The notes: generated by a model from the letters alone, not told the origin. Shown: positions 4,059 through 57,608, numbered from the stretch's first letter. The stretch is DNA of 64,000 bases from Sulfolobales archaeon (GCA_026419835.1 JAOAKQ010000003.1:123237-187236), one strand, 5' to 3'. Made by a program: numbers and translations.

Positions 4059-4128
4059 CCCCCCAAATAAAGTTTATAAACCTACAGACGATAGGAGCGC
4101 AAAGGAATCTGAACAATAGAATTGAAAG
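4059..4128 (+). CRISPR. solo leader plus single CRISPR-type repeat (copy A)
   Basis: repeat GAATCTGAACAATAGAATTGAAAG at 4105-4128; leader with ATAAAG-TTTATAAA resembles the copies at 53921 and 57495. Confidence 0.75.
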
Positions 4129-4133
4129 GACAA

Positions 4134-4223
4134 CTACTTCTCTTTCTTCTTAGAGACCCGCTTCTTGACCTCGCTCTTAGTTTTCTCAGCTTCCTTGGAC
4201 TTCCCACTCTCACCTACTCCCAT
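4134..4223 (-). CDS. putative small Lys-rich peptide (MGVGESGKSKEAEKTKSEVKKRVSKKKEK; could extend to ATG 4274)
   Basis: manual translation; purine-rich, coding-like strand bias; too short for the ORF track. Confidence 0.3.
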   Translation of the reverse strand: MGVGESGKSKEAEKTKSEVKKRVSKKKEK

Positions 4224-4311
4224 AAACAAAGTAGTTCTCTGCCTACCCCCCACGACACTCGCCACAGAGTACATGCGATCTCGGTTTTTAAGTGTGTAGG
4301 GAATACTAGCG

Positions 4312-4366
4312 TAGATGATGTAAAAGCCGAGTATTGAGCGGTGAAGTGTCTCCCGAAGTCTGATAA
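4312..4366 (+). ncRNA. C/D box sRNA (2'-O-methylation guide)
   Basis: C ATGATGT 4315, 12-nt guide, D' TTGA, C' GTGAAGT, guide GTCTCCCGAAGT, D CTGA 4360; TATA TTTTTAAG at 4285; D guide complementary to the conserved 23S motif ACUUCGGGAGA. Confidence 0.8.
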
Positions 4367-4463
4367 GCGCTGCTCGTACCTAGGTTAGCTAGAACTTCGA
4401 GAGAAGTACCGTAGAAAAGCTTTAAAGTGAAATTCAGCTACTGGAGTAGGTAAGGCGGTAAAG

Positions 4464-5486
4464 GTGGCTCGAAGAAAGCAATCAGCTCCAAGAAGAGGTA
4501 GCCTAGGTGTAAGACCGCGGAAGAGAGCTTCGAGAATACTCCCTAGAGTTAGGTCGTGGCCTGTGCTCGACCTACCTGCTCCGAAACCCCTAGCCTTCGT
4601 AGGCTACAAAGCTGGGATGACTCATATCATTATCGTTGACAACAGGCCGGGGTCCGCAACGTACGGTCAGGAGATAGCTATTGCTGCGACCGTAATCGAG
4701 ACTCCCCCCATGATAGTTCTTGGAGCTAGGTTCTACACTCGGGAAGGTTTCGGAGGTCTCAAAACTCTGACTGAAGTTTGGGTAGAACCGCCGAAAGACC
4801 TAGAGATCTGGCGTAGAATATCTACCTTCTCGGCGGATCCGCGAAAGAACGAGCTTAGAACTAAGATGGTTCTAGAGCAGGTCGATAGGATAGCTGAAGT
4901 GGCTATACTAGCCGCTACCCAGCCTAAGCTGGTCGGTGGATTAAGTAAGAAGGTACCGGATATTCTTGAAGTAAAGATCGGTGGTGGAAGTATCTACGAT
5001 AGAGTAAACTACGCGCTATCGATTCTAGGAAAGCAGTTAGATGTATCAAGTGTTTTCTCCGCAGGGCAGTTCGTTGATGTTATAGGTGTAACTAAGGGTA
5101 AGGGATTCCAAGGTGTAATAAAGAGATTTGGAGTGAGAGAACTTCCGAGATGGCATAAGCATAGAAAAGGTAGTAGGAGAGTTGGGGCTAGATCCCCAAC
5201 GATAGGAGCTCTAAGTGCCGTTCCTCAAGCGGGGCAGATGGGGTTCCACAGAAGAACGGAGTTCAATAAGTGGATCATAAGTATAGGAAACAACGGATAC
5301 GAGGTAACCCCGTCGGGAGGTTTTCCGCACTACGGACTGGTTAAATCTACGTACGTAGTGTTGATAGGAAGTGTGTTCGGACCGCCGAAAAGACCTGTAG
5401 TACTTAGGTGGCCTATAAGACCGCCAACCGAAGCCGTGTTGGAACCTCCTAGAGTAGTGTACACTAGCTTGGAGAGTAAGCAGTGA
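4464..5486 (+). CDS. rpl3: 50S ribosomal protein L3
   Basis: PRRGSLGVRPRKRA, GYKAGMTH, KGKGFQGVIKR. Confidence 0.98.
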   Translation: MARRKQSAPRRGSLGVRPRKRASRILPRVRSWPVLDLPAPKPLAFVGYKAGMTHIIIVDNRPGSATYGQEIAIAATVIETPPMIVLGARFYTREGFGGLKTLTEVWVEPPKDLEIWRRISTFSADPRKNELRTKMVLEQVDRIAEVAILAATQPKLVGGLSKKVPDILEVKIGGGSIYDRVNYALSILGKQLDVSSVFSAGQFVDVIGVTKGKGFQGVIKRFGVRELPRWHKHRKGSRRVGARSPTIGALSAVPQAGQMGFHRRTEFNKWIISIGNNGYEVTPSGGFPHYGLVKSTYVVLIGSVFGPPKRPVVLRWPIRPPTEAVLEPPRVVYTSLESKQ

Positions 5487-5487
5487 G

Positions 5488-6306
5488 GTGCTGAAGGTGA
5501 GAGTGCTAGTACTGCCCGAGAAAATCTCGCAGAAGAAGGTTCCACTCTATAGCTTAGATGGAAAGCAGGTGGGTGAGATACCCCTACCCCCAGTTTTCTC
5601 GATACCTATTAGAAAGGACGTTATTAGGAGGGCTTTCCTATCAGCACTAACAGCCCGCCTCCAGCCTAAGGGTAGAGATGAGCTTGCCGGTAAGAGAAGA
5701 GTTGGTGAATCGTGGGGGATAAACTACTCAGTAGCTAGGGTTCCGAGATTAGATAACGGTAGAGCTGTGCTCGCTCCTCATGTTAGAGGAGGTCGCCTAG
5801 CGTTTCCACCCACTACCGAGAGGAGAGTACATGAAAGAGTCAATAAGAAGGAGAAGGCTCTCGCACTAGCTTCAGCACTAGCGGCTACAGCTAGAGTTGA
5901 GCTAGTTAAGCAGAGAGGGCATAGATTCTTCGCTAAGGACCTTCCGGTAGTTGTTGTAGATGATTTAGAGGCATTAAGCGAGACCTCAACCCTAAAGAAA
6001 GTTCTTCAAACACTGGGAGTTTGGGATGACGTGGTTAGAGCTCAGGAGGGAACTAGGGTAAGAGCTGGTAGAGGTAAGATGAGAGGGCGGAGGTACAAGA
6101 AACCGAAGTCTCTTCTCGTAGTAGTTTCCAGTGGTAAGTGCCCACTAGTTAAAGCCGCTAGAGCTCTCCCAGGCGTTGAAGCTGTTTCAGTAGATCTACT
6201 AAGCGTTCTTCATCTAGCTCCAGGGGGGCATCCGGGGAGGTTGATGGTGATAACGGCCAGCGCCCTCGGTAGGATTGGCGAGAAGTTCGAGGTGGTAACT
6301 CCTTGA
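5488..6306 (+). CDS. rpl4: 50S ribosomal protein L4 (exact start uncertain)
   Basis: ESWGINYSVARVPR, RAGRGKMRGRRY, HLAPGGHPGRL. Confidence 0.97.
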   Translation: MLKVRVLVLPEKISQKKVPLYSLDGKQVGEIPLPPVFSIPIRKDVIRRAFLSALTARLQPKGRDELAGKRRVGESWGINYSVARVPRLDNGRAVLAPHVRGGRLAFPPTTERRVHERVNKKEKALALASALAATARVELVKQRGHRFFAKDLPVVVVDDLEALSETSTLKKVLQTLGVWDDVVRAQEGTRVRAGRGKMRGRRYKKPKSLLVVVSSGKCPLVKAARALPGVEAVSVDLLSVLHLAPGGHPGRLMVITASALGRIGEKFEVVTP

Positions 6307-6566
6307 AGGACCCCCGCAGTATTATAAAGGCCGCGGTGTCTAGCGAGAAGGCTATAACGTACATGGAGAAGTTCAACACCATTACTTTCATAGTCGATAT
6401 CAAGGCAACGAAGAAAGACGTCGAGAAAGCCGTTGAAGAGCTATTCGGCGTTAAGGTAGCTAGAGTTAGAACTCTAGTAACCCCTAAGGGAGAGAAGAAG
6501 GCCTACGTTAGGTTAACTGAAGAATATAAGGCATCGGACGTAGCAACTAAGTTGGGTATAGTGTAG
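6303..6566 (+). CDS. rpl23: 50S ribosomal protein L23
   Basis: SEKA...TFIVD...GEKKAYVRL. Confidence 0.97.
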   Translation: MKDPRSIIKAAVSSEKAITYMEKFNTITFIVDIKATKKDVEKAVEELFGVKVARVRTLVTPKGEKKAYVRLTEEYKASDVATKLGIV

Positions 6567-6577
6567 CGGTGGTTTAG

Positions 6578-7294
6578 GTGGGTAAGAGAATACTTTCGCA
6601 GAGGGCTGGGAGAGGTACGTCCGTATTTAGAAGCCCGTCCCATCTAAGAATAGCTCCAGCGAGATACCCACTCCCAGCTAATGAGACTAAGAAGGGAGTA
6701 GTGGTGGAACTAGTGCACGACCCTGGGCGATGGGTACCTCTAGCTCGAGTCGTACTAGAGGATAACTCCGAGTTCTACACTCCAGCAGCTGAGGGAGTCT
6801 ATCAGGGGCAGGTTGTGTACATAGGACCTCAATCCCCGGTCGCAGTTGGAAACGTACTGCCACTCAGTAACATACCTGAAGGAACTAAGGTCTTCAACGT
6901 AGAGTTAAGACCTGGCGATGGAGGTAAGATAGCTAGACAGTCCGGTAGCTACGTAGTAGTTCTAGGAAAGTCCGGTAGCTACGTAGTAGTTCTCCTACCT
7001 AGTGGTGAGCAGAAGATGGTTCTGGGGGGTTGCAGAGCTACTGTAGGCGTTCCAGCCGGTTCTGGAAGACTGGAGAAGCCGTTGCTGAAGGCGGGCGCCG
7101 CTTACCATAAGTGGAGAGTTAAGGCTCGGAAGTGGCCTAGAGTTAGAGGTGTAGCAATGAACCCGGTGTCCCACCCACATGGCGGTGGTTCACATCAAAG
7201 TGTCTCAAGGTCATCTACCGTATCGAGAAACGCGCCGCCAGGACGTAAAGTAGGTCACATAGCCGCTAAGAGAGCTGGAAGAACGAAGAGGTAG
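6578..7294 (+). CDS. rpl2: 50S ribosomal protein L2
   Basis: MGKRILSQRAGRG, WPRVRGVAMNPVSHPHGGG. Confidence 0.98.
   Translation: MGKRILSQRAGRGTSVFRSPSHLRIAPARYPLPANETKKGVVVELVHDPGRWVPLARVVLEDNSEFYTPAAEGVYQGQVVYIGPQSPVAVGNVLPLSNIPEGTKVFNVELRPGDGGKIARQSGSYVVVLGKSGSYVVVLLPSGEQKMVLGGCRATVGVPAGSGRLEKPLLKAGAAYHKWRVKARKWPRVRGVAMNPVSHPHGGGSHQSVSRSSTVSRNAPPGRKVGHIAAKRAGRTKR
6939..6993 (+). repeat. perfect 25-bp direct repeat (30-bp period) inside rpl2
   Basis: AGTCCGGTAGCTACGTAGTAGTTCT at 6939-6963 and 6969-6993. Confidence 0.95.
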
Positions 7295-7327
7295 TTTATT
7301 AAGTTACGCAAGTAGTTAAAGAGGGGT

Positions 7328-7825
7328 CTGAGTACGCCTGAGGTAAAGACTGAGATATCACCCGAGTGGGCTAAGTTCAGGTACAGAGGAAAGACTTTAA
7401 GCGAACTCGTGAACATGCCTATGGACGAGCTGATAAAGCTTCTCCCAGCTAGAGCTAGGAGAAGCCTTCTCAGAATGTCGGACCCCGAGGTTAGGGGTAG
7501 GATGCTTGAGTACGGAATGCTGCGCTCAGAAAGAGAAGACCCGGAGAGGCTAAAGCTCCTCAGAAAAGTACTTAAAGCTAGGGAAGCGCTCGCTCGAGGA
7601 AAGAACGTCGTTATTAAAACACACGTAAGAGACGCTATAGTGCTCCCGATAATGGTCGGTCTAACTATAGTTGTGTTCAATGGAAAGGAGTACGTACCAG
7701 TAAAAATAACCCCAGAAATGATAGGTCACTACCTAGGGGAGTTTGCTATAACGACTAAGAAGGTAGAGCATGGAGAACCAGGTCTCAAAGCCACTAGGTC
7801 TACCCTCTTCGTTTCGATGAAGTAA
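7328..7825 (+). CDS. rps19: 30S ribosomal protein S19 (probable CTG start)
   Basis: [27 protein letters not shown]; conserved [14 protein letters not shown] lies upstream of the ORF-track start 7409. Confidence 0.95.
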
Positions 7826-7930
7826 GCTTTGAAACTCCTCAACATAACGTAGACCGTGTGCCTAGATGTCTTGGAGATCTCGTAGGTAATTTCTAGAAAG
7901 TGGATTTAGCCATATTCTAGAGGTAGGTGT

Positions 7931-8371
7931 GTGGCTGTGGAGTGCTTCACTAAGTTCTTCGGGAATGCCGTACCTCAGGAATTTCTAAGAACTCTCCTAC
8001 TAGAAGCTGAAGAATATGCTGCCAACGCTGTGACCGTCAAGTTCAATTTCGATTGCTACAGAAACCTGTTGAAGGAGTTATCGGTGACACTACTCTACGT
8101 CGGCATCGGTGAAATTATTGTTGAAGTTTCTCTATTACCAACCATCGAAGCTAGAGATTTTCTGCTGAGGGTCTACAGCTCTCTTCTGTCGAAGTCCTGG
8201 TCTGTTGAACTATTTGAGGATAGAATACACTTAGTTAAGAAGGTTAGCTGTCGGAGAATTCCCGGAATAGACCTAGCGGCAGCACTAAGCAGCGTTCTCG
8301 AAGACGTAGGCGAGAGATGTTCGTTTAGTTTCTCCGGTCTATACGAGCTGAAGTGGTATACGGAGCGGTAG
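7931..8371 (+). CDS. hypothetical protein
   Basis: 146-aa ORF with SD-like GAGGT; no motif recognised. Confidence 0.55.
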   Translation: MAVECFTKFFGNAVPQEFLRTLLLEAEEYAANAVTVKFNFDCYRNLLKELSVTLLYVGIGEIIVEVSLLPTIEARDFLLRVYSSLLSKSWSVELFEDRIHLVKKVSCRRIPGIDLAAALSSVLEDVGERCSFSFSGLYELKWYTER

Positions 8372-8424
8372 CTTAGGGCTATAGTTATTAGTGTCTAGCG
8401 GATATAGTATATTGGTGGGGATAC

Positions 8425-9903
8425 GTGTTTGAAGAAGCTGCGTATAGAGGGCCTCCACCCAAGGTGGTACTAAACAGAGTTGATGAATATACCTGGGAAA
8501 TTCCGAGGAACTTTAAGAACTGCATGAAAGTTCCAGCTATAGTTTTTGCTGACGAGTACTTAATCAGTAAGATGAGGGAGGACCTGACCCTAGTTCAAGC
8601 AGCAAACGTAGCTTGCTTAAACGGGGTCGCGGTCGCATCATACGTAATGCCCGACGGTCATCAGGGATACGGTTTTCCAATAGGTGGAGTAGCTGGAATG
8701 GACTACGATGAGGGTGTGATATCTCCCGGTGGTGTTGGTTACGATATCAACTGCGGAGTAAGGCTTTTGAGAACGAATCTATTTGCCGAAGACGTTAGAC
8801 CTAAGCTCAAGGAACTGGTCGATACGTTGTTTCACAATATCCCCTCTGGAGTGGGTAGTACGGGTAAGGTGAGATTATCTCTATCTGAACTAGATAGAGT
8901 TCTGCAGGAAGGTGTCGAGTGGGCTATAGGTAGAGGCTTCGGCTGGTCTGAAGACCCGGAGCACATAGAGGAGCGCGGGTCGATGAAGGGTGCGGACCCC
9001 AGCAAGGTCAGTAAGGTAGCGAAAGAGCGGGGAGCGCCCCAGCTGGGGACTCTAGGAGCTGGCAACCACTTTCTTGAAGTGCAGGTAGTGGATAAGATCT
9101 ACGATAAGGAGGTGGCGAAGGTCTTAGGAATAGAGCGCGAAGGGCAGATAATGGTAATGATACACACCGGTTCTAGAGGTCTCGGACACCAGGTAGCTAG
9201 CGACTACCTACTGATTATGGAGAGAGCTATGAGAAAATACGGTATATCGCCACCAGATAGAGAACTTGCTTCCGTACCGATAAAGACTAGGGAGGGTGAG
9301 GACTACTTCGCAGCTATGGCAGCTGCCGCTAACTACGCCTGGACCAACAGGCAGCTTATAACTCACTGGGTTAGAGAATCTTTCGAAAGAGTTTTCGGTG
9401 TAGACGCTGATAAACTAGGTCTCGAGATAATTTATGATGTAGCACACAACATAGCTAAAATCGAAGAACACTCCGTTGATGGAAGGCGCATGAAGTTGGT
9501 AGTTCATAGAAAGGGTGCTACGAGAGCTTTCCCACCTGGGCATCCAGATATACCTAGAGCGCACCAATCCGTTGGGCAGGTAGTGCTAATACCCGGGTCC
9601 ATGGGTACTTCGAGCTACGTAATGGTCGGGGTTCCGGAGGGTGGCAGGACTTTCTACTCCGCCGCGCACGGAGCTGGTAGGTGGATGTCTAGAGAAGCCG
9701 CTGTTAGAACCTACAGACCTCAGAGCGTAACTCAAGAACTCGGTTCGAAGGGGATCTACATAAGAGCGGCGACGTCCAGGGTCGTATCCGAGGAAGCACC
9801 TGGAGCTTACAAGGACGTGGATAGAGTGGCTTTAGTTAGCCATAAAGTTAAGATCGCTAAACTCGTGGCTCGTCTTAGACCCATAGGTGTAGCTAAAGGT
9901 TGA
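8425..9903 (+). CDS. rtcB: tRNA-splicing ligase RtcB
   Basis: MPDGHQGYGFPIGG, GYDINCGVR, GNHFLEVQ, HRKGATRA, HGAGR, EEAPGAYK. Confidence 0.97.
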   Translation: MFEEAAYRGPPPKVVLNRVDEYTWEIPRNFKNCMKVPAIVFADEYLISKMREDLTLVQAANVACLNGVAVASYVMPDGHQGYGFPIGGVAGMDYDEGVISPGGVGYDINCGVRLLRTNLFAEDVRPKLKELVDTLFHNIPSGVGSTGKVRLSLSELDRVLQEGVEWAIGRGFGWSEDPEHIEERGSMKGADPSKVSKVAKERGAPQLGTLGAGNHFLEVQVVDKIYDKEVAKVLGIEREGQIMVMIHTGSRGLGHQVASDYLLIMERAMRKYGISPPDRELASVPIKTREGEDYFAAMAAAANYAWTNRQLITHWVRESFERVFGVDADKLGLEIIYDVAHNIAKIEEHSVDGRRMKLVVHRKGATRAFPPGHPDIPRAHQSVGQVVLIPGSMGTSSYVMVGVPEGGRTFYSAAHGAGRWMSREAAVRTYRPQSVTQELGSKGIYIRAATSRVVSEEAPGAYKDVDRVALVSHKVKIAKLVARLRPIGVAKG

Positions 9904-10343
9904 GAAAACTTAGAGTTCTTTTTAGAGTAGGAAGACTTTTATCGCCATCCACGGTAGTACTACGTGATGATGGTGTTCTGGAGATAGTTCTTGCTTCTCC
10001 CGTATCTGAATCAACCAAGATTAAGGGGTCTTTATCTCCCGCAGAAATCGGTAGCATAGTGCCGGGTGGCTTAGAATTTTCACTAAGAGAGCGGGAGTGC
10101 GAGTTCTCGACGAGGAGATTAAGAAGAAAAATGAAGATACTCGATAGAGAAGAGAGGAACATGCTCAAGCACCTAGGTGTAGACCTGAGTAAATACTTTA
10201 GGGAAGGAACTAGACCCTACGGAGAAATCTACCTAGTTAAGTTGTTGAAGAACGATTGGGAATATTCGTTTATAGCTAGTAGAAAGTCTATGACCTACAT
10301 AAAGAACTACCTAGCTAAGTACTGCTTAGAGGTTCTTGAATAG
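9900..10343 (+). CDS. hypothetical protein
   Basis: 147-aa ORF overlapping the rtcB stop (TTGA). Confidence 0.55.
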   Translation: MRKLRVLFRVGRLLSPSTVVLRDDGVLEIVLASPVSESTKIKGSLSPAEIGSIVPGGLEFSLRERECEFSTRRLRRKMKILDREERNMLKHLGVDLSKYFREGTRPYGEIYLVKLLKNDWEYSFIASRKSMTYIKNYLAKYCLEVLE

Positions 10344-10473
10344 CTAGGTCTAGCAATGTGTTGAGATGTTGATATGTGGCTTGCTAATTGCTAGATCTAA
10401 CTCTCTTTATCTTCTCATAGCTCTACTAGAAGCTTATAAGGCATAGCTTAAACACATAGGCTTGGTCTGGAGT

Positions 10474-10953
10474 ATGCCAGTATGGAGGTACTCAGTGAGG
10501 TTGCGAGATGAGTCGCGAATAGCGAAGGCTGTACTGTGGGACGCTCCTATATCTAGAAAGGAGGCTTACGAAATACTCAAGGTATTGAGGGGAATGAAGC
10601 TTACTGATGCTAAGAAGTTTCTTGAAGATGTTATAGCTATGAAGAGAGCCGTTCCGTACTCTAGGTACAAGCTCTCTATAGCCCACAAGTCAGGTCTTGC
10701 GGATAGTTTCCCGAAGTGGAAGTCGCCTATTGGGAGGTACCCTGTAAAAACCGCTAAGTACATTCTTAAGCTATTAAGTAATTTAGAAAACAACGCAGAG
10801 TCTAAGGGGCTGGACGTAGAGAGATTGGCAATAGTTCACGCAGCGGCTCATAGAGGTCCCTACTTGAAGCGGTGGATGCCGAGAGCTTTCGGCCGGGCCA
10901 CTCCGAAGTTCAGGTCTTTAACCCACGTCGAAATGATGGTTAAAGAGGTATGA
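10474..10953 (+). CDS. rpl22: 50S ribosomal protein L22
   Basis: GRYPVK, RWMPRAFGRATPK. Confidence 0.97.
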   Translation: MPVWRYSVRLRDESRIAKAVLWDAPISRKEAYEILKVLRGMKLTDAKKFLEDVIAMKRAVPYSRYKLSIAHKSGLADSFPKWKSPIGRYPVKTAKYILKLLSNLENNAESKGLDVERLAIVHAAAHRGPYLKRWMPRAFGRATPKFRSLTHVEMMVKEV

Positions 10954-10957
10954 TAAA

Positions 10958-11599
10958 GTGGTAGATACTAAGAAATATTTTCTCGAAATGAGCGTTACTC
11001 GACTGAAGGTCGACGAGTACTTAGCTAAGACTCTGTCTAAAAGTGGGTATGTTGGTGTAGACCTCTTTAGAACTCCTCTCGGTGATAGGGTAATAATATA
11101 CGCAGACAGGCCGGCTATGGTTATCGGTAGGAAGGGACAGCAAATTAAGAAGTTAGCAGATCTTCTCTCCAAGTACTTCAAGCTAGAGAATCCGCAGATA
11201 ACTGTAACTGGTCTTGAAGTGCCCGAGTTGAGTGCTAGAGTAATGGCATCTAGAATAGCACTAGCACTAGAGAAGGGGTACCACTTCAGGCGAGCGGCTT
11301 TTGTCGCTCTTAGAAGAATTATGGCTGCCGGAGCTATCGGATGTGAGGTAGTAATAAGCGGTAAGCTCACAACTGAGAGAGCTAGGTACGAGAAAGTAAG
11401 GGTCGGTAAGGTGTATAAGACCGGTGGGCACATCAACAGACTAGTCGATAGAGCCATTGCTAGCGTACTTCTAAAACCCGGTGTCTACGGTATTGAAGTA
11501 ATCATAGTGAAGCCGGGAACTCCGGACGATCACGTTACGTTTAAATCTCAAGAAGTAGCTCAGCAGGTGCTTCAGGAAGCTGAGGGTGGTAGTAAGTGA
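10958..11599 (+). CDS. rps3: 30S ribosomal protein S3
   Basis: KH motif VIGRKG, GYHFRRA, GCEVVISGKL. Confidence 0.97.
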   Translation: MVDTKKYFLEMSVTRLKVDEYLAKTLSKSGYVGVDLFRTPLGDRVIIYADRPAMVIGRKGQQIKKLADLLSKYFKLENPQITVTGLEVPELSARVMASRIALALEKGYHFRRAAFVALRRIMAAGAIGCEVVISGKLTTERARYEKVRVGKVYKTGGHINRLVDRAIASVLLKPGVYGIEVIIVKPGTPDDHVTFKSQEVAQQVLQEAEGGSK

Positions 11600-11829
11600 G
11601 CTTATCGGCTGATGAGATACGGCGAATGAGCCGGGAGGAGAGAGCTAGGCTACTCAACGAGCTCAGAACGGAGTTGATAAAACTGAGAACTCAAGCTAGA
11701 GTTGGAACGCTAACTAATACTGCGAGAATTAGAATTGTGAGGAAGAACGTAGCGCGCATACTAACGGTTATTAATGAGGAGAGAAGGAAGGGTGGCGGGA
11801 AGATTGAAGTACACCAAGAGCAATCTTAA
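11596..11829 (+). CDS. rpl29: 50S ribosomal protein L29
   Basis: EIRRMS...RIRIVRKNVARILT. Confidence 0.95.
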   Translation: MSLSADEIRRMSREERARLLNELRTELIKLRTQARVGTLTNTARIRIVRKNVARILTVINEERRKGGGKIEVHQEQS

Positions 11830-12079
11830 GTGCCACGAGCTAATAGGACTGGAAGTTAGGGTAGTGGACCACAGCGATAAGGGACTTGTAGGACTATCTG
11901 GGAGAGTAGTGTGGGAAACAAAGAACGTGTTAGTTATAGAGAGCTCTGGACGCGAGGTTAAAGTACCCAAGAACTTCGCAGTATTTTCTTTTAAGCTTCC
12001 GAGCTCAGGTAGCTTAGTGACTGTAAGTGGTGAAGAGATACTTTCAGTTCCTGAAGAAAGAGTCAAGAACTGTAGGTGA
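11804..12079 (+). CDS. rnp1: RNase P protein subunit Rpp29/Pop4
   Basis: HELIGLEVRV...GRVVWETKN; operon position. Confidence 0.92.
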   Translation: MKYTKSNLKCHELIGLEVRVVDHSDKGLVGLSGRVVWETKNVLVIESSGREVKVPKNFAVFSFKLPSSGSLVTVSGEEILSVPEERVKNCR

Positions 12080-48986: not shown

Positions 48987-49258
48987 CTCACTCCACGCTC
49001 GAGCTGATAAGAATTTTTGGGGCTCCTAGACTAACTTACCCACTTAAACGTAAACTAACAAAAATGAAAATGGCAAGCATGATTACATTTAATAGTATAT
49101 GTAAGGGGATTGGAGGTCACCCAACAAATCAGCTTGTATGGTTGATGTGTATGGAATGGTGCAGGCGATTCTAAGACGCTCACTACAAGTAAAATCCAAA
49201 ACACCTTCCAATTATAACGTTTACACTTTCTATTTTATGAGGTTGTGTTTAAATCTTT

Positions 49259-49832: not shown

Positions 49833-49878
49833 GACGCAACCCGGTAGCAACATATAAAGCATGATTTAATAACGTTTC

Positions 49879-49922
49879 GCAGACTTGTCGTAACTCATCA
49901 TCTGCTCTATCAGTCATCGTTA
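49879..49922 (-). ncRNA. degenerate C/D box-like sRNA
   Basis: minus strand ACGATGA-CTGATAGAG-CAGA-TGATGA-GTTACGACAAGT-CTGC; TATATTAA upstream; GTTACGAC complements 16S GUCGUAAC. Confidence 0.45.
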
Positions 49923-49928
49923 GCGGAA

Positions 49929-50228
49929 ATGGGGGTTTCTAGTAAAGCATTAATATACGCTCACATAGTTCTCTGGGATTTAGGTATGTACACTGAAAAC
50001 AGGTTTCTAGGTAGAGTAGAGAAGGTCGCTGGAAACGTAGAGTCTCTTCTAGTAGAACTAGAGGTCTTGAGGGATGAGCTGAAGCAAGTACTAGCTGAAG
50101 CTAGGTCCTCTAGAGATAAAGAGAAAGCGAGAACCCTGGAGAACCTACTGGCAGAGTTAGAGAGAGCTTACGAAGTTTTAAAGTCTCTCTACAGACGATT
50201 GAGCTTACTGCAATTAGAGCGCTCTTAG
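49929..50228 (+). CDS. coiled-coil hypothetical protein
   Basis: helical heptad pattern; real start probably the internal ATG (MYTENR). Confidence 0.55.
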   Translation: MGVSSKALIYAHIVLWDLGMYTENRFLGRVEKVAGNVESLLVELEVLRDELKQVLAEARSSRDKEKARTLENLLAELERAYEVLKSLYRRLSLLQLERS

Positions 50229-50345
50229 CGAGCGGCGCTCAAGTACTTCGTACAGCGTGTGCGTAGACAGATATTTACTAAATAGTTCGCCGCTGAGCAC
50301 TTTCTAAAGCATATAAGAATGGTTCTTCAATAACACCGTGAGGGC

Positions 50346-50633
50346 TTGGCGGTGGCGATCTTAGATTGCGCACTATCTAAAGCTTTAATCGGTGTTCTGG
50401 TGGGGGCCGCGCTGTCTGCTTTATCGATCGTAGCTATACACTACTCATCAGATATTCTTCAGTACGTGACCATCGGTATCTACGTAACTTCTTCACTATC
50501 AGTACACCTACCAGCTTCCAGGATCTCTAGGTCTAGGTGCTCTATAAGAAGTGGGCTATTCCTATATCTCTCAGTCACGTTTATTTCGTGGATTGCCGTT
50601 TTCAACATAGTGTACGCCGTAGTTAAACCGTAG
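50346..50633 (+). CDS. small membrane protein
   Basis: three hydrophobic segments. Confidence 0.5.
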   Translation: MAVAILDCALSKALIGVLVGAALSALSIVAIHYSSDILQYVTIGIYVTSSLSVHLPASRISRSRCSIRSGLFLYLSVTFISWIAVFNIVYAVVKP

Positions 50634-50644
50634 CGTGAGTCTAC

Positions 50645-51238
50645 ATGGACGAAACTGGTGAAAGAACGGGGGGTTCTGTAGGCCAATCCCGTGAACACGC
50701 TTTGGGTGATGCGAGATATCTAATCATGAACTACTACGACTCTCTATCTAGATCCTATGGAGAGCTATACTGTCGCGAGCAGATAGCAAAATACTCAAGA
50801 GCTATTAGAGCTGAACTACATGGGAGAGTCCTAGATGTTGGTTGCGGTATAGGTCTTCTCTACAGCTACCTCACGAAGAAACTCCGCACTTTCCCGGAGC
50901 TATACGTAGGGATGGACTTGAGCTCCGAATCTCTTAAGAAACTGAGGTCTAGGTACGGAAAGTCCGGGGTTGTTGAAGTAGTGGCAGCTGATGCGGGGTT
51001 TCCACCACTGAGAGGGAAACCGAGTTTTACCCACGTATACTCATTCACACTCTATACGTGCGATTACGGAGATGTCGGTGCGATCCTAAACCTAGTAGAC
51101 CTCGATTTTACTAAGGAAGTAGTTCTAACACTCATGTGTAGTAGCAAAGAACCTAGATGTCCGGAAGGATTTTCATATGCCGGTCGCTTAAGCAGAATCG
51201 AGATCCTGTGCGTAAGAAGTGCCGCCGGGGGGATTTGA
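50645..51238 (+). CDS. class I SAM methyltransferase
   Basis: YGELY..EQ..KY, LDVGCGIG; 3' end overlaps the tRNA-Phe 3' end. Confidence 0.78.
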   Translation: MDETGERTGGSVGQSREHALGDARYLIMNYYDSLSRSYGELYCREQIAKYSRAIRAELHGRVLDVGCGIGLLYSYLTKKLRTFPELYVGMDLSSESLKKLRSRYGKSGVVEVVAADAGFPPLRGKPSFTHVYSFTLYTCDYGDVGAILNLVDLDFTKEVVLTLMCSSKEPRCPEGFSYAGRLSRIEILCVRSAAGGI

Positions 51239-51304
51239 ACCCCCGACACCCCGGTCTCCCAAAGACCTTCAGCCGGGTGCTCTCCCAGGCTGAGCTACGG
51301 CGGC
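51220..51304 (-). tRNA. tRNA-Phe(GAA) with an 11-nt intron (51256-51266) at 37/38
   Basis: GCCGCCGTAGCTCAG...CCCGG CT GAA G[GTCTTTGGGAG]A CCGGG...TTCAAAT...CGGCGGCA. Confidence 0.92.
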
Positions 51305-51426
51305 ACCAGTAGTAGCTTACTCCGGTAATTATAAATTTTTCTTGAGGAGTTCTCGAAAGTTCTACGGCGATCAGCATCAACATTTAACCTCAGACATTCA
51401 GAGTACCTGTAGACACGGTGTAGGAT

Positions 51427-52563
51427 TTGAGTAAGGGAGCCGGTCTCGCGGGAGAAGCTATTGAGTTGAGCTACGATGACTGGAAGAGGTTCTTTAACGT
51501 AGACATAGCTGGAGTAGCCGTTAGAGCTTCTAGACTCTTAAGTTTGGTGGAGCTACTTAGGAGCGCCGCATCACCCACGGCGGCTGTAAAGATAGTTGCG
51601 GGAGTTATTGGGAGGAATACTGTCGGGCACAGTAGAGACATACAGAAATGCTTTAGAGAATTCTTAGGCATTGAGTGTCTAGGCTGCCGAGAGCTAGTTA
51701 AGAGAATCTCGGTAGGTGTTCCACTAGCTCAAGTCTCTGCGTACGCTAAGCTATCTTTTAAGGAAGCTGAGTGGTTGAACTCTCTCAGAGTTCTCGAGAA
51801 GTTTCTGAGAGAGTCTCTCAAGATAGCTGCCGGTATTGAGCTTAGAGATGAGCATCTTAAGGCTATGGCTACCAAGGACTACGCAGCTCTCACAGGCGAT
51901 CCTCTCGGAGTTTTCAGCATGCTTCGAGGTTTTTACGTAGCTTCACGCAGAATCCTACCTCACTTCAGCCCCCACGCCTTCCTTATTCAAACTCTTAGAG
52001 GAGTTCCTCGCTTCGCTCTCGAGAGACTGGTGGGTAAAGAGGGGCTCGAGGTCTTAAGTAGGTTTAGAATGAGCTTCAGAGAGCTGATACCGTGTGAAAA
52101 TAGTGATTACTCACTGCTTTCACACAGCGCAGGCACTCCCGGCGACTTCATCTCTTCGTCTATAGACCTGGTCTTCAGACTGCATGAACTCGGGTCCTCG
52201 TACCGCCTGAAGCACTTAAGAGTGAAAAACGAGAAGGAGGTATTCCTCGATAAAGCTACGCTAGCTGTAGACCGTGTGGCTGAGTGGCTGAGTGTTAAGA
52301 GAGAGTTCAGCACGCTGTCTAAGCTGCTCTTAAGCGGCGGGCGGATCGTGGAGAGGCTCACTACTCTTCAGATAGTTAAAGTGAGGATAGAAGCGGGGAA
52401 GCCAGCTCGACGCGTAAGTATTGGAGGTAGAGAGCTGGAGGTGGGGGAGTTTATGAAGGGGTTATCTCCCTACTCCGTGCTCGGTTTAAGTAGGTTCGAG
52501 AATTTGGTGGATAGAGGTGCGAGTATCGAAGCAGGCTTACTAGTCTACTTGAGATCGAGGTAG
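51427..52563 (+). CDS. hypothetical protein upstream of the solo cas4-like gene
   Basis: 378-aa ORF; no motif recognised. Confidence 0.6.
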   Translation: MSKGAGLAGEAIELSYDDWKRFFNVDIAGVAVRASRLLSLVELLRSAASPTAAVKIVAGVIGRNTVGHSRDIQKCFREFLGIECLGCRELVKRISVGVPLAQVSAYAKLSFKEAEWLNSLRVLEKFLRESLKIAAGIELRDEHLKAMATKDYAALTGDPLGVFSMLRGFYVASRRILPHFSPHAFLIQTLRGVPRFALERLVGKEGLEVLSRFRMSFRELIPCENSDYSLLSHSAGTPGDFISSSIDLVFRLHELGSSYRLKHLRVKNEKEVFLDKATLAVDRVAEWLSVKREFSTLSKLLLSGGRIVERLTTLQIVKVRIEAGKPARRVSIGGRELEVGEFMKGLSPYSVLGLSRFENLVDRGASIEAGLLVYLRSR

Positions 52564-52569
52564 TGCGCG

Positions 52570-53202
52570 ATGTCTTCAAATAGAGGGATTCTCGATTTAG
52601 TTGAGGTCATGTACTCCTTTGCTAAAGCTGAGAGAAGTAGGTATAGGAGAGAAAGGGGGGTCATTTGGGTTACGGACCTAGTCAGATGCCCTCTAAAGAG
52701 AGTTTACGAAGACCGCTACCCAGATATAGCACTGCAGGAACTCTTCAAGCCGAGTTTAATAATTGGTACGCTAGTACACCGCGGCCTAGAGAACCTGCTA
52801 AAGGAGGTAGTTAAAGACTACTCTATCGAGGTAGAAGTTGAGGGAGCTAAAGACGTGGTCCTAGACGACGGTTCGGTAGTTTCAATTAGGGGGAGGATCG
52901 ACGTGCTCTTAACGAGAAACTTCGAGAAGGCGGCTGTTGAGGTTAAGACTTCCAGATCGGATAGGAACATACCTCAAAAGCACCACGTTGACCAGGTCAG
53001 AGCGTACAACTGGTTATTGAATTTAAGCGGCTCTATACTGCTCTACATAACACCGACTAGAGTTACTCAGTTCTACGTCGAGGATAGAATGGACGATGCT
53101 GAAGTAGTGAGTAGAGTCACCTCAAAGAAAGCTCCTAGATATAGCTGGGAGTGCTCGTACTGTGTGTTCTCGGTGTTATGCCCCTACAAAACTGAGGTGT
53201 AG
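52570..53202 (+). CDS. cas4: solo Cas4-like PD-(D/E)XK exonuclease with Fe-S cysteines
   Basis: WVTDLVRCP, GTLVH, GRID, EVKT, QVRAY, ECSYCVFSVLCP. Confidence 0.85.
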   Translation: MSSNRGILDLVEVMYSFAKAERSRYRRERGVIWVTDLVRCPLKRVYEDRYPDIALQELFKPSLIIGTLVHRGLENLLKEVVKDYSIEVEVEGAKDVVLDDGSVVSIRGRIDVLLTRNFEKAAVEVKTSRSDRNIPQKHHVDQVRAYNWLLNLSGSILLYITPTRVTQFYVEDRMDDAEVVSRVTSKKAPRYSWECSYCVFSVLCPYKTEV

Positions 53203-53209
53203 TGGAGAA

Positions 53210-53941
53210 GTGGCGGTAAGGTATTGGCGAATGCCGTACAGAGTCCTTAAACTCGAGCCGATTTACACTGGAGTTCTAGTAGGGAGAGTTGGAAGATTCG
53301 TTGTTCAAGTAGACCTCGGTGGGGAGGTCGTTCTAGCTCACAATACTAACACCGGTAGACTTCTCGATGTACTGGTTCCAGGTAGAAGAGTGCTTGTTGT
53401 ACCTATAGAGAGTAGACTTCGGTATAGGCTGGTTGGTGTCGAGGATAGCTCGTTGAGCTGCTTTTACATAGTAGATGTAGCTACTCAGTCCAAGGTCTTC
53501 GAGAAGTCTATAGAGCTAGGTCTACTTCCCTACTTTAGTGGGTGTAAGATAGCTAGGCGAAACCCTCTAGTAGGTAGAAGTAGGTTAGACTACGTTCTAG
53601 AATGCGGTCTCAGAAGGGTTTTCGTTGAGACTAAGAGTGCCGTTATGAGAGGACCTGGGGGTGAAGCTATGTATCCCGATTGCGAGACAGAGAGAGGTAG
53701 AAGACATATCGAGACACTCATAAGGTTGGCATCTGAAGGCGCAGTCACGTACCTAGTATTCGTATCGGCTATGTGCTCAGTTACGCGCTTTAAACCGAAT
53801 ACTAGTGGAGATAGAGTAGTATTTCAGCTAGTGTCTGAAGCTGTTAAGAGGGGGGTTAACGTTAAGAGCATCTCTGTTTACATGGATGCCGATGGGGTTG
53901 TATATCTCGAAAACCCGGACCTCCCCCAAGATAAAGCCTAG
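53210..53941 (+). CDS. sfsA: SfsA family DNA/RNA nuclease (start approximate)
   Basis: GRF, HNTNTGRL, SRLDY, VETKS, YPD..TERGRRH. Confidence 0.9.
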   Translation: MAVRYWRMPYRVLKLEPIYTGVLVGRVGRFVVQVDLGGEVVLAHNTNTGRLLDVLVPGRRVLVVPIESRLRYRLVGVEDSSLSCFYIVDVATQSKVFEKSIELGLLPYFSGCKIARRNPLVGRSRLDYVLECGLRRVFVETKSAVMRGPGGEAMYPDCETERGRRHIETLIRLASEGAVTYLVFVSAMCSVTRFKPNTSGDRVVFQLVSEAVKRGVNVKSISVYMDADGVVYLENPDLPQDKA

Positions 53942-54028
53942 AAACCCGCGAACAATAGAAACACGGAAGAATCTGAACGATAGAGAGAAGAAAAGCGGAG
54001 AACAGAATCTAAACGATAGAATTGAAAT
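53921..54028 (+). CRISPR. leader plus degenerate two-repeat mini-array (copy B)
   Basis: truncated repeat GAATCTGAACGATAGA 53969-53984, 20-nt insert, repeat GAATCTAAACGATAGAATTGAAAT 54005-54028. Confidence 0.75.
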
Positions 54029-54684
54029 AGTAGTTGCTCTAAGTTAGTGATTGCTATATCAGGTCTAACAGTTCTATCAATTCCGAGCCATTCAGCATAG
54101 GGGTCTGAACTAGACCTAGCTACGTAGATAGTCTTTAAGCCAAATACCTTCGGGTAGTACACATCGAAAGTGTAGTTATCCCCAACCGCTATTCTCACAC
54201 CTCCATCACTCGGTGTAGAGTAGAACTTAGCGCAGTTTTTAAGACAGCCAACTACATCGGGGGTAAGCACCAAATCAAAGTACTTGCTCAAGTCGAGAAG
54301 CTCTATAACACACTTCTGGTACTTGAGTAGGCCGTTGGTAGCTAGAGCAAGAACTCTAACTACAGACCTCAGTCTACTTAGAACTTCGTGCGCGTTGTCT
54401 AGGACCTTCGAGGACCCGCAGAGTTCCTCAAACCTTCTATCTATCCTAAACCCGGGGCTAGTACCGAATGCCCCCGAAACCTTCTCGTAGATGTAGTCCC
54501 AGTCGAATGCTAGCGGGTCAGACCTCCTTACGAGGTCTATGTGTATTCTCCAGGAAGTAAGCTCCACTTCCCTCAATCCGCAACCCGCTTGCTCAGCGAT
54601 ATGTTCGTAGGCTTCTCTTATAACACTGGAAATCGGACTTACTGCGAGAGTACCATCTAAGTCTACGTACACCACGTACTTCAA
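53938..54684 (-). CDS. HAD family hydrolase
   Basis: DLDGTL, ATNG, VGDN..FDV; last ~27 codons read through the repeat element. Confidence 0.85.
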   Translation of the reverse strand: MKYVVYVDLDGTLAVSPISSVIREAYEHIAEQAGCGLREVELTSWRIHIDLVRRSDPLAFDWDYIYEKVSGAFGTSPGFRIDRRFEELCGSSKVLDNAHEVLSRLRSVVRVLALATNGLLKYQKCVIELLDLSKYFDLVLTPDVVGCLKNCAKFYSTPSDGGVRIAVGDNYTFDVYYPKVFGLKTIYVARSSSDPYAEWLGIDRTVRPDIAITNLEQLLFQFYRLDSVLRFSSLYRSDSSVFLLFAGF

Positions 54685-54778
54685 GTTAAGCGCCCCGAGA
54701 GCACGCGCAGATTCTTTAACTTATAACTACGTAAAGCATTAAAAGCTTAAAATTCTTTGATAACTCTAACTCTACTAG

Positions 54779-55261
54779 GTGCTTAGAGTGTCTCAAAAAG
54801 CTGAGAAATCGGTATCTAAGGAACTTAAGATGGTGTCCAGACCTGTTGTAACTGTAGATGATGCTATGAGAGATGATAAAAAAGTCGGTCTTCTAAGTAT
54901 CGTGAAGGCCTTGGGTGAAGTAAGTGAGAGAGGGTTAATTAACTGTCTCTACATTCTTAAAACAGAGAAAGGGAGAGACGCGGGGTACCCGTTCCAGGTG
55001 ATCGGTTCAGTGGTAAATAGCAGAGAAGCGCTGGAGGATATTAGAGTTCTCCTGTACTTAGGTCTAATAGAAGTTACTGAAACCAGGAAACTCAGGCTAA
55101 CTTCTCTGGGAGGTGAAGTATTAGAGAAAGTAAGTAGCAAGCGGAAAGAGGTTATGGAGGAACTATCGAAAACGGTGGAGGAAATAAAGCAGAGAGTTCT
55201 ATCTGAAGATAGCCTACTGAGCATGCTATCTACAGGTGGTAGAGGGCGTAGACGTAGGTAG
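54779..55261 (+). CDS. hypothetical winged-helix-like protein
   Basis: LLYLGLIEV...LRLTSLG. Confidence 0.6.
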   Translation: MLRVSQKAEKSVSKELKMVSRPVVTVDDAMRDDKKVGLLSIVKALGEVSERGLINCLYILKTEKGRDAGYPFQVIGSVVNSREALEDIRVLLYLGLIEVTETRKLRLTSLGGEVLEKVSSKRKEVMEELSKTVEEIKQRVLSEDSLLSMLSTGGRGRRRR

Positions 55262-55313
55262 CTTAGATCGATATTTAAGTTTAAACTTAATAACTGCTGG
55301 TCAGGTGGAGCTA

Positions 55314-55619
55314 GTGGTAAAAGCATCTCGAGGCTTAAGACATAGAACTAGGAAGCTCTTTAGAAAGAATGTGAGAGAAAGAGGTGCCGTACCTCCACTT
55401 AGCTTAGTTATGAGAGAGTACAACGTCGGCGACAAGGTACATATAGTACCCAACCCAGCGGTCCACGAAGCTCTACCCCATAGAAGATACGTAGGTAGGA
55501 CCGGAACTATAGTTGGTAGAAGAGGTAGAGCTTACTTAGTAGAAGTCGCTGTAGGTAGTAAGAAAAAAACGGTCATAACCGTTCCAGAACATTTGAAGCC
55601 GGCTCAGATCGGTAGTTAG
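55314..55619 (+). CDS. rpl21e: 50S ribosomal protein L21e
   Basis: SRGLRHRTRKL, PHRRY.GRTG, PEHLKP. Confidence 0.96.
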   Translation: MVKASRGLRHRTRKLFRKNVRERGAVPPLSLVMREYNVGDKVHIVPNPAVHEALPHRRYVGRTGTIVGRRGRAYLVEVAVGSKKKTVITVPEHLKPAQIGS

Positions 55620-55628
55620 GGAAAGATT

Positions 55629-55961
55629 ATGAAGATTCTTGAAGTAAGTAACATACCCCTGGCTCTCGCACTTAAGAAACTTCTTGAATGTGAGAAAAGG
55701 GGGTTGATAGTTAAGGGATTAGCGAAGAGAACTATGGAGCTCGCCGAATCCTTAAAGAGATGCGAAAACCCGGAGAAACTATACGAAGAACTGGTTAAGC
55801 TCGGTTTAAGCGACTTAACGGCATCTATGGTGGTAGATACAGCTCCGAAGAGTATCGATGAAGTGAGAATCTTACTAAGCTTCGAGTCTTCTAGTAGTGT
55901 TGGTGAGATAGTTTCTCGAGTAGTCGAATTGGTATCTACGTACTGCTACAAGCAGTCCTAA
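55629..55961 (+). CDS. rpoF: RNA polymerase subunit Rpo4/F
   Basis: position between rpl21e and DUF655; VDTAPKSIDEVRIL. Confidence 0.8.
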   Translation: MKILEVSNIPLALALKKLLECEKRGLIVKGLAKRTMELAESLKRCENPEKLYEELVKLGLSDLTASMVVDTAPKSIDEVRILLSFESSSSVGEIVSRVVELVSTYCYKQS

Positions 55962-55983
55962 TTACGCTTACTTAAGTGATATT

Positions 55984-56643
55984 ATGAGTTTAAAGGATAG
56001 AGACTACTGGCTAAGACTAGTTAGTAGAGAGGACTACGCTCTAGTTCTAGACTTTCTGCCTAGAGGTAACCCCGTCGACCCCCACCACCCATCGCATCGA
56101 GACCGCCCCATAGTTCAGGCAGTGGGGTGCCGGTACTTTACGTTAGTAGAATTCCATCCCAAGCCCGGAGTTAGCATTGTTATTGAGGAGAAGGTCTACA
56201 TAGGCTTTGCGAGGCGTGAACTTAGAGATAAGGTAGCGTACGTCTGGGGAGAGCCTATAGCGTATGAAGACTTAACAGCTATAGCTAGGTCTAACCTTCC
56301 TTCAGCTATTCAGAAGATCATTCTAGAGTTTGAGAAGGAGTTTACTAAGTTCTTCAATACGGCCCCATCTCTAACTATTAAACTCCATACTCTCGAACTA
56401 ATACCTGGAATAGGTAAGAAAACCTTGTGGGTAATTCTCGAGGAAAGAGCGCGCGGAGCGTTTAAGGACTTCACGGACATTAAAAGCAGAGTTAAAGGAT
56501 TCGATCCCGTAAAAGCACTAACGGAGAGAATACTAAGTGAATTAAAAGGTGCTGAAAGGTACTACCTCTTCGCTCATCCACCTAAAAACGCCACAACTGC
56601 GGTATACTTGGACTACCTGAGCAGACTCTACATGGAGAAGTAG
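55984..56643 (+). CDS. DUF655 family RNA-binding protein
   Basis: EDYALVLDF, LHTLELIPGIGKK. Confidence 0.9.
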   Translation: MSLKDRDYWLRLVSREDYALVLDFLPRGNPVDPHHPSHRDRPIVQAVGCRYFTLVEFHPKPGVSIVIEEKVYIGFARRELRDKVAYVWGEPIAYEDLTAIARSNLPSAIQKIILEFEKEFTKFFNTAPSLTIKLHTLELIPGIGKKTLWVILEERARGAFKDFTDIKSRVKGFDPVKALTERILSELKGAERYYLFAHPPKNATTAVYLDYLSRLYMEK

Positions 56644-56650
56644 CTGGGGT

Positions 56651-57376
56651 GTGAAGATCTCCTTTAAAATAAGAATAGTTCTAGTCGAGCCGGAGGGAAG
56701 AATGAACTTCGGTCAAGTACTGAGGCTCAGCAAGAACTTCGGTATTGACGATGTATGTGTTGTCAACCCGAAAATCGATCTTAGAGATAGGGAGGTTGCG
56801 GAGTTTGCCGCTGGTGGTGCCGACCTCGTAGAGAAAGTTAAAGTAGTAGACGCCCTAGGTAAGTGTCTTGAGGACATAGACTTCTCAGTGTGCACGACAT
56901 CTATTGCTGGAGCTCCTGAAGACCCTCTAAGACAGGCGGTCTCACCAAGAGCTATACCTCTACTACTCCCCAGAAACTCTAAGATAGCTCTAGTGTTTGG
57001 ACGTGAGAGCGTTGGGTTAACGAGGTCTGAGCTAGCTATGTGTTCTCTGGTCTCTACACTAGTAACTCCTTCGGAATACAACGTACTCAACATAACTCAC
57101 GCAGTAGCGCTCTATCTCTACGAACTCGTGGGGCGCGATTTTGAAGACGTAGTTGTAGGTGAAAGATGTCCCGCGAGCTACATGAAGATTCTCGCTAGGT
57201 ACCTAGAGAAGCTTGGAGAATCCTACGGCTTAACTCGGTACGAAATTGCGGCACTTAAGCATGTCTTAAGTAAGGCTTTGCTAACTAAGGTTGAGTGTAG
57301 AACTCTGTATAAGCTTCTTAAGACATCTCTAGCTATCTACAGTAAGTTCTCTAGGAGAGAGTTGGAGATGGAGTAA
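56651..57376 (+). CDS. TrmJ-like SPOUT tRNA methyltransferase
   Basis: IVLVEPE, NFG, VFGRESVGL, LNITHAV. Confidence 0.85.
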   Translation: MKISFKIRIVLVEPEGRMNFGQVLRLSKNFGIDDVCVVNPKIDLRDREVAEFAAGGADLVEKVKVVDALGKCLEDIDFSVCTTSIAGAPEDPLRQAVSPRAIPLLLPRNSKIALVFGRESVGLTRSELAMCSLVSTLVTPSEYNVLNITHAVALYLYELVGRDFEDVVVGERCPASYMKILARYLEKLGESYGLTRYEIAALKHVLSKALLTKVECRTLYKLLKTSLAIYSKFSRRELEME

Positions 57377-57494
57377 GTACTGAAGAAGTGTAGCGGAGAC
57401 TACGGGTTGCTACTAGCTTTCTTAGATTGCGGGGGCTCAGCGAAACACTTCAGATACTTCAACCCGTGATCGCTTAAGCACTTAAGAGCTTGAC

Positions 57495-57608
57495 CACTCC
57501 CAAGATAAAGCTTAAAAACCGCGGACGATAGAAACACGAGGAATCTGAACGATAGAATTGAAAGAATAGAACCTCCCTCAACAAGGTCTCTCCCACGGAA
57601 GTGGAATC
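57495..57608 (+). CRISPR. leader, repeat, 39-nt spacer-like segment and repeat stub (copy C)
   Basis: repeat GAATCTGAACGATAGAATTGAAAG 57541-57564; 57565-57603 unique; GAATC at 57604. Confidence 0.75.

Follow-up and report, generated by a model that had tools for sequence, protein, structure and literature searches.

CRISPR repeats that lie outside arrays have been described as ectopic repeats, in the form of solitary repeat units (SRUs) and mini-CRISPR arrays (Faure 2019 and Medvedeva 2019, as cited in PMC8616872; Shmakov et al. 2023, PMC10120712). Shmakov et al. (PMC10120712) infer that ectopic repeats are dynamically gained and lost, and remark that mini-arrays rarely grow, being leaderless. 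Methanocaldococcus jannaschii is given 18 CRISPRs in the relevant portion of PMC2886076, and Phok et al. 2011 (PMC3124441), in the portion drawn on here, has no bearing on dispersed units. Our searches of the literature turned up ectopic repeats, mini-arrays and SRUs; a genome-wide burst of single-repeat units that bear a promoter was not among the reports found, although subscription journals or supplements could hold one. Here we analyse a stretch of 64,000 nucleotides from a Sulfolobales archaeon (GCA_026419835.1, JAOAKQ010000003.1:123237-187236), hereafter the window, in which three short elements join the promoter-proximal part of a CRISPR leader to a single CRISPR repeat. They are three of at least 36 such units scattered over this genome, and on balance we are inclined to see the family as ectopic, self-copying minimal CRISPR loci at tolerated sites, which would be transcribed and processed and could seed arrays.

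The window lies within contig C41 of a metagenome-assembled genome (MAG, here G000) of 1.417 Mb in 107 contigs, 84% complete, of an organism whose DNA occurs in hot-spring metagenomes. With a best L3 match of 65%, this is an uncultured, Desulfurococcales-like representative of the Thermoproteota. Bare positions below are those of the window, and C-numbers are contigs of this genome.

Leader-repeat units in the window and across the genome

A search of the window with the 24-mer GAATCTGAACGATAGAATTGAAAG gave three matches at up to three mismatches, all on the + strand, against none in 100 dinucleotide-preserving shuffles, and at each of these loci (A, B and C, Table 1) the repeat is preceded by a stretch of about 45 nt with a core resembling a B recognition element (BRE) and a TATA box. 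The first-pass annotation of the window had described just this leader and 24-mer at three + strand loci, and we can confirm both; it had not spelled out that unit B is of a two-part form, with a degenerate repeat and a linker ahead of the repeat, just as genuine arrays begin. At Rfam gathering thresholds the window yielded four tRNAs only, and no family on units A to C.

The 24-mer is the repeat of the host's own arrays. About 1,680 copies occur in G000, most of them in array fragments, with 1,554 distinct spacers between them, a total that points to a CRISPR load out of the ordinary or else to the binning of many strain variants into one genome; contigs shorter than 5 kb, almost all of which are array fragments, make up 132 kb of the assembly. 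Two arrays stand in large contigs (Table 1). True array leaders carry gcgCTCCCAAGGTAAAGCTTAAAAACCC, followed after about 20 nt by GAA, the degenerate repeat GAATCTGAACGATAGAGATGGAAA, the sequence AGCGGAACACG and the first true repeat, and since they share the motif of the window 'leader', the latter corresponds to the promoter-proximal 47 nt of a real array leader. One array spacer matches the chromosome at C52:30858-30893 with 100% identity over 36 of its 42 nt and is a possible self-targeting spacer.

The csa1, cas1, cas2, cas4, csa3 and cas6 genes adjoin the C30 array (block C30:87919-92196, with cas6 at C30:91291-92196). When congener cas genes were compared with G000 by tblastn, they matched contig C30 only and nothing on the window's contig, which agrees with the earlier statement that the window has no cas1/2/6 or effector genes. 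In the congener G002 (G002:C4:336-12688) the same csa1-cas1-cas2-cas4-csa3-cas6 block is directly joined to a complete Cmr (type III-B) module, whereas in G000 what comes after cas6 is a leader-only stub (C30:92135-92181) and then a tRNA; Cmr and Csm modules are present in G002 and G005. RAMP proteins (PF03787: 0 matches), Cas7 and Cas10, and with them any type I or type III effector gene, were not found in G000, which at 84% completeness is not evidence of absence, and the same limit applies to the tblastn search with 11 congener effector proteins, none of which matched.

An nhmmer profile built from the units and run on G000 contigs of at least 5 kb returned 38 leader-type matches. Two of these are the true arrays and the other 36 are dispersed units, of which 32 bear one repeat or more and four consist of a leader only, so that the family has at least 36 members; their repeat and leader are those of the host arrays, as the comparison foreseen in the first-pass annotation brought out. 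A sequence-only covariance model (CM) derived from 20 short-form units gave, at E<=1e-7, 39 matches in G000 and six in the sister species G001, with none in 39 other genomes of the family, nor in G006-G009 at E<=1e-5. The dispersed units had no matches in the eight congeners other than G001. A strict leader-plus-repeat pattern, run on 30 relatives, matched only G000, and was replaced by the covariance model because it misses a diverged unit that G001 shares. The units are located on 11 chromosomal contigs, between housekeeping genes, and only that at C30:92135 abuts cas6.

A unit is about 70 nt long and consists of the 47-nt BRE/TATA stretch, as found at the true arrays (C19:203780 and C30:87506), and the host repeat. 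The long form keeps the degenerate first repeat and linker of the arrays, and the short form has one hybrid repeat. Unit borders are sharp, with the consensus (T)GACTA-CTCCCAAGATAAAGCTTATAAACCCTCAGACAATAGGAACGCAGAA-repeat. Across the 20 short-form units, the repeat is closest to the consensus (identity 0.93), followed by the BRE/TATA part (0.86), the linker (0.74) and the 5' flank (0.62), so that the leader is indeed shared, as had been proposed from the three loci of the window. The repeat differs by zero to three mismatches from the host array repeat in 27 of the 32 repeat-bearing units. Thirty of these 32 have no spacer, a second spaced repeat being found only in C96:18886 (49-nt spacer) and C30:129533 (73-nt interval). 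In the C96 unit a leader and a degenerate repeat are followed by a repeat, the spacer and another repeat. A unit-specific CTGAGCG is common to its three repeats, and this shared change fits a duplication of the repeat during spacer uptake at an ectopic unit, which may have taken place there.

The dispersed units differ from the arrays in two short sequences that they have in common: ahead of CTCCC they read GACTA and not AAGCG, and they have AAGATAAAG in place of the AAGGTAAAG of the arrays. Because of this difference we infer that copying went from unit to unit, the donor being another unit rather than an array. The units at C10:4213 and C101:500 are 97% identical, and their identity continues 5 nt past the repeat (GACTG); those at C9:3729 and C107:5714 are 94% identical, and the median pairwise identity is 77% (273 pairs). 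On this sequence evidence the copies are shown to be of mixed age. Terminator-like T5 tracts within 100 nt downstream gave no signal (2/32 units, background 3.4%), and when the 45 nt after each repeat were compared with the genome by BLAST for targets in trans, the best non-self matches were of 17-18 nt at E 0.002 or worse, not beyond chance.

Sister-species sites and strain variation

We checked the sites of all 36 units in the G001 sequence (1.288 Mb), which is about 70-85% identical to G000 in the flanking DNA. Both flanks were on one G001 contig for 29 units, and 27 of these 29 sites are without a unit in G001; the empty orthologous sites anticipated from the window do exist. Outside arrays G001 has only three leader-type matches, two of them orthologous in position to G000 units (C41:206238 with G001 C11:207560, and C30:330140 with G001 C16:145079), and a repeat remnant at the C96 site. 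One unit common to both species is about 95% identical, as judged by eye. At some nine sites the G001 sequence falls short of that of G000 by approximately one unit length, with flanks that align up to the unit borders; these include C10:4213, C19:239781, C30:95710, C30:160003, C30:162970, C30:166852, C52:43937 and window loci A and B. At eight sites the unit must have replaced something, since G001 has unrelated or longer DNA there. The junctions show microhomology at some sites and replaced resident DNA at others. At C30:166852 the flanks are CTACTCC and GACTACTCC, and the empty site of G001 reads TTACTCAGG. The triplet GAC follows the repeat in 5/32 units as against 8/1,554 spacers (p=3e-6).

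The fragmentation of this MAG into 107 contigs, with its many array fragments, raises the possibility that the units are long arrays collapsed to one repeat, or chimeric joins. However, in run X2, which comes from a different sample and study and is independent of G000, contigs bridge unit B (53421-54483) and unit C (57491-57926) with no differences, and also the units C30:150660 and C30:162970 with 0-1 differences. Arrays of up to 56 repeats also assemble normally in G000. Collapse by the assembler is therefore very unlikely, and units B and C at least are not collapsed arrays; such a collapse would have undone the first-pass annotation. At least two units also recur at orthologous sites in a separately assembled species, and we give almost no credence to an assembly artefact of either kind.

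Two further runs, X3 and X4, contain a relative about 90-95% identical to G000. In it the unit at site B is present with a different leader variant, the unit at C30:150660 has one extra base, and other sequence stands in place of the C30:160003 region. The unit at C30:162970 is both present (a contig over 13524-14060 of L211) and skipped (a joint 13951->13996) in these runs. At C30:166852 the relative has the short form where G000 has the long one, the degenerate and the true repeat being brought together by a skip of 36 nt. Because units thus vary between presence and absence and between long and short form, the family is in flux within the population.

The last of these variants has a bearing on another explanation, by which each site is a former normal array, reduced to its leader and one repeat by recombination between repeats and now inert. 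That such recombination happens is shown by the strain that is short where G000 is long, and the explanation gains further from the long-form units, which retain the degenerate repeat, linker and repeat of an array, and from the repeat remnant at the C96 site in G001. However, collapse leaves unexplained how the leader came to be at 36 intergenic sites that are without it in the sister species. Nor does it lead one to expect that the dispersed units share GACTA and AAGATAAAG, which the arrays do not have, or that two loci carry 97%-identical units whose identity reaches 5 nt past the repeat. We therefore think it rather unlikely that the units are relics of this kind.

Gene context and possible roles of the units

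Genes were taken from our own codon-usage caller (1,319 genes, 0.90 coding). Only 5/36 unit midpoints fall inside called genes, compared with the coding fraction of 0.90 (p=6e-26). Twelve units are situated between convergent genes, nine run antisense between tandem genes, 11 are divergent, on the promoter side of the downstream gene, and four are in sense between tandem genes. Over the family, 21 units are antisense into a neighbour's 3' end and 15 have the same sense as the downstream gene (binomial p=0.4). The suggestion of the first-pass annotation that each unit is aimed antisense at the 3' end of a gene thus holds for the three loci it had seen but does not extend to the family. The neighbouring genes examined have no common functional theme. 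At C85:6545-6687 two units stand head to head between a pair of convergent genes, each directed at the 3' end of a different gene of the pair, and one of the two units has a 5-nt deletion in its repeat. At C107:1549-2474 a 236-aa gene, which by eye resembles a helix-turn-helix regulator, stands between two units, one in sense next to its 5' end and the other antisense at the 3' end.

A regulatory role would follow if a Cas6-processed guide in a type III (Cmr) complex cut the 3' end of the convergent neighbour's mRNA, with the anti-tag silencing Cas10. The antisense placement of all three window units and of 21/36 in the family, nine of them within 5 nt of the stop codon, would suit such regulators, and so would the C85 pair, each member of which is aimed at one of two convergent genes. 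Conservation is higher in the promoter and the repeat than in the linker, G001 retains at least two units, one of them about 95% identical by eye, and G002 has its complete Cmr module directly beside the same cas block. Against these points, there is no orientation bias (21:15), and 15 units would give RNA of the downstream gene's sense; 27 of the 29 comparable sites in G001 are without a unit, and strains are polymorphic. In addition, four units are leader-only, several have degraded repeats, the neighbours examined are without a functional theme, and homologues of RAMP, Cas7 and Cas10 were not found in the G000 assembly with its 84% completeness. Regulation is unsupported family-wide and possible for some members, and as a general explanation we hold it to be unlikely. 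The first-pass annotation had left the choice between a mobile or ectopically seeded unit and regulatory RNAs. The former fits the copy number of at least 36, the absences in G001, the strain polymorphism and the 97%-identical pair, whereas the latter, unsupported for the family as a whole, is confined to the three window loci.

It is highly improbable that the units are decoys encoded by the host, short repeat RNAs that would damp CRISPR activity through binding to Cas6 or to effector proteins. Lone repeats that hardly differ from that of the arrays, with their own promoter, in a genome with an extreme array load could serve that end, and the concept has been published for viral SRUs and RNA anti-CRISPRs (PMC8616872; PMC10651486). 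However, there is nothing to tie the copy number to regulation, and the units are scattered and decaying.

We return to the reading of the units as self-copying minimal loci, which likely spread by copying from one another and are not dedicated regulators. The copied segment would often extend 2-5 nt past the repeat (GAC...). In an intact unit, transcription is predicted from its BRE/TATA box, and as the leader-repeat junction follows the TATA box after about 25 nt, the predicted transcripts start near the repeat. It is established that CRISPR RNAs (crRNAs) have an 8-nt handle and that their 3' ends are trimmed in type I-A and type III complexes. The predicted cut by Cas6 is 8 nt before the 3' end of the repeat, and the predicted product is a AUUGAAAG-tagged RNA whose body is adjacent host sequence, that is, a 'self' guide. 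Type I self-targeting would be avoided because the DNA copy is flanked by the repeat. A complementary mRNA reading through the repeat would carry the anti-tag, in which case a type III complex would cut the RNA without switching on Cas10; the first-pass annotation had argued in this way, and as established type III biology the argument is sound. We read the antisense bodies of 21/36 units as a by-product of where insertions are tolerated. A leader and one repeat are the minimal substrate for spacer integration, and for this reason the units are potential seeds of new arrays.

Several points weigh against this reading. Gain in G000 as opposed to loss in G001 is polarised with outgroups at locus C only. 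No consistent target-site duplication (TSD) was seen at the unit flanks, there are no clear terminal inverted repeats (TIRs; in inverted orientation the two ends agree at 6/12 positions), and neither a transposase nor an integrase was found with the units. The role as array seed is suggested by one or two mini-arrays, C96 being the case with a spacer. The better preservation of the repeat (93%) and the BRE/TATA part (86%) than of the linker (74%) hints at selection for expression and processing, and hence perhaps at some function. The gene calls are crude. In nine antisense units the end is no more than 5 nt away from a convergent stop codon, which could be the effect of a target preference, because the sequence after the unit often resembles (G)ACTAC, the complement of which includes TAG.

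The genes beside the three window loci are as first annotated, namely a 46-aa Lys-rich open reading frame (ORF), a HAD-family hydrolase and a DHH/DHHA1 protein (Table 1). The frame and length of the 46-aa ORF, which has no Pfam match, are kept in G001, and for that reason it is probably a real small protein. At locus B both convergent genes now end inside the unit, the stop codon of sfsA being the TAG of the drifted TATA box, and the antisense strand of the unit gave the HAD ORF about 30 additional codons; the G001 orthologue terminates in ...LEQLPNVISRL just outside the position of unit B (C-terminus read by eye from the alignment).

At locus C, nucS is full-length between the SpoU methylase and DHH genes in G001, G002, G003, G005 and G006, and in G000 it is a stub; no second copy was found in the G000 assembly, and all nine congeners are without a unit there. 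This is the clearest case of a unit replacing resident DNA. CRISPR self-targeting as the cause of the loss was considered and rejected, no spacer matching chromosomal genes of G001. nucS is a mismatch endonuclease gene, and one may speculate that its loss raised recombination between diverged sequences.

Table 1. Units A to C, the genes beside them and the two arrays on large contigs of the same genome
Feature	Position	Strand	Remarks
Unit A leader	4059..4104	+	copy of array-leader promoter; TATA-like TTTATAAA at 4073-4080; nhmmer E 8.5e-16, CM 67.4 bits
Unit A repeat	4105..4128	+	1 mismatch; predicted 8-nt handle ATTGAAAG from 4121; GAC at 4129-4131
Lys-rich ORF, 46 aa	4134..4274	-	stop 5 nt past repeat A; conserved in G001; upstream of rpl3 operon
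Unit B leader	53923..53968	+	TATA drifted to CCTAGAAA; TAG at 53939-53941 is the sfsA stop codon
HAD-family hydrolase ORF	53938..54684	-	last ~30 codons are the antisense of unit B
Unit B degenerate repeat	53969..53992	+	GAATCTGAACGATAGAGAGAAGAA; same arrangement as at the start of true arrays
Unit B linker	53993..54004	+	12 nt; in true arrays the 11-nt AGCGGAACACG
Unit B repeat	54005..54028	+	2 mismatches, ending GAAAT
nucS stub	57433..57498	-	last 22 codons, 77% identical to G001 NucS; abuts unit C; rest of gene missing
Unit C leader	57497..57540	+	TATA-like CTTAAAAA at 57511-57518
Unit C repeat	57541..57564	+	0 mismatches; predicted handle from 57557
DHH/DHHA1 protein gene	57607..58569	-	convergent; stop 42 nt past repeat C
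Array in large contig	C19:202582-203734		leader at C19:203780
Array in large contig	C30:86044-87460		leader at C30:87506

In a bolder version, a self-propagating leader-repeat module would plant dozens of genes for single-guide 'self' crRNAs over the chromosome, at once array seeds and anti-tag-protected type III guides that trim the 3' ends of host mRNAs, an RNAi-like layer made out of the immune system, and the loss of nucS may have loosened recombination and helped the burst. We consider this decidedly improbable. The units of different ages, with their empty sites and strain variation, let the seeding of CRISPR arrays at new chromosomal sites be studied directly. They are natural test cases for whether a lone promoter-bearing repeat yields host-directed guide RNAs, and for whether type III systems tolerate or use them. 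Even if the units are merely selfish or neutral, the leader-repeat junction can still act as a dispersed repeat that reshapes gene ends, as with sfsA and the HAD gene at B and nucS at C.

Comparison with known systems

Like canonical CRISPR arrays the units have a leader, with a predicted promoter, but two or more spaced repeats are lacking in 30 of the 32 that bear a repeat. With SRUs they have in common a single repeat, identical or nearly so to the host array repeat and placed outside arrays. However, published SRUs, in the parts of the literature drawn on, are found on viruses and proviruses or in or beside cas loci and are mostly leaderless, whereas the G000 units are chromosomal, among housekeeping genes, number at least 36 and each have the array promoter.

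A classic leaderless SRU also occurs in G000, at C11:2280-2303. It is situated in a run of about 5.8 kb (C11:1700-7480) of ORFs without family matches between two array pieces, with related sequence on C70 and on G001:C5. The run is matched on both strands by 108 of the 1,554 distinct spacers, and has the look of an SRU-bearing virus or plasmid that may be integrated into an array. The 11 spacer matches in G001 are all on a 1-kb contig of the same mobile element.

CreA, CreR and other CRISPR RNA-like RNAs (crlRNAs) resemble the units in being ectopic repeats with their own promoter from which crRNA-like RNAs are expected; as described in the relevant part of PMC10120712, they are situated in cas loci and conserved among relatives, and as a rule a spacer with a partial match to a cas or toxin promoter stands between two repeat-like arms. 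In contrast, the G000 units have no cas linkage and no match in trans beyond chance, and two, perhaps three, share their position with G001.

For M. jannaschii, Bult et al. in 1996 reportedly described an LR/SR structure of the loci, some of which are near-empty. The leader in that species is several hundred bp long and most loci are true arrays. The likeness to G000 is that many dispersed loci of one archaeal genome have a common conserved leader and some have few repeats; the differences are that the shared part in G000 is only about 47 nt, that 30/32 repeat-bearing units are spacerless and that empty sites are documented in a sister species.

The units are also similar to miniature inverted-repeat transposable elements (MITEs), as they are short intergenic sequences in many copies, some older than others, which vary between strains and are missing from the corresponding sites of relatives. 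Unlike MITE-like elements, they have no clear TIRs, consistent TSD or known partner transposase, and their content is a functional-looking CRISPR leader and repeat. What sets them apart from the ectopic repeats known so far is the inclusion of the promoter, the number of at least 36 copies, the surroundings of housekeeping genes, and the combination of empty sites and strain polymorphism that is seen with mobile elements.

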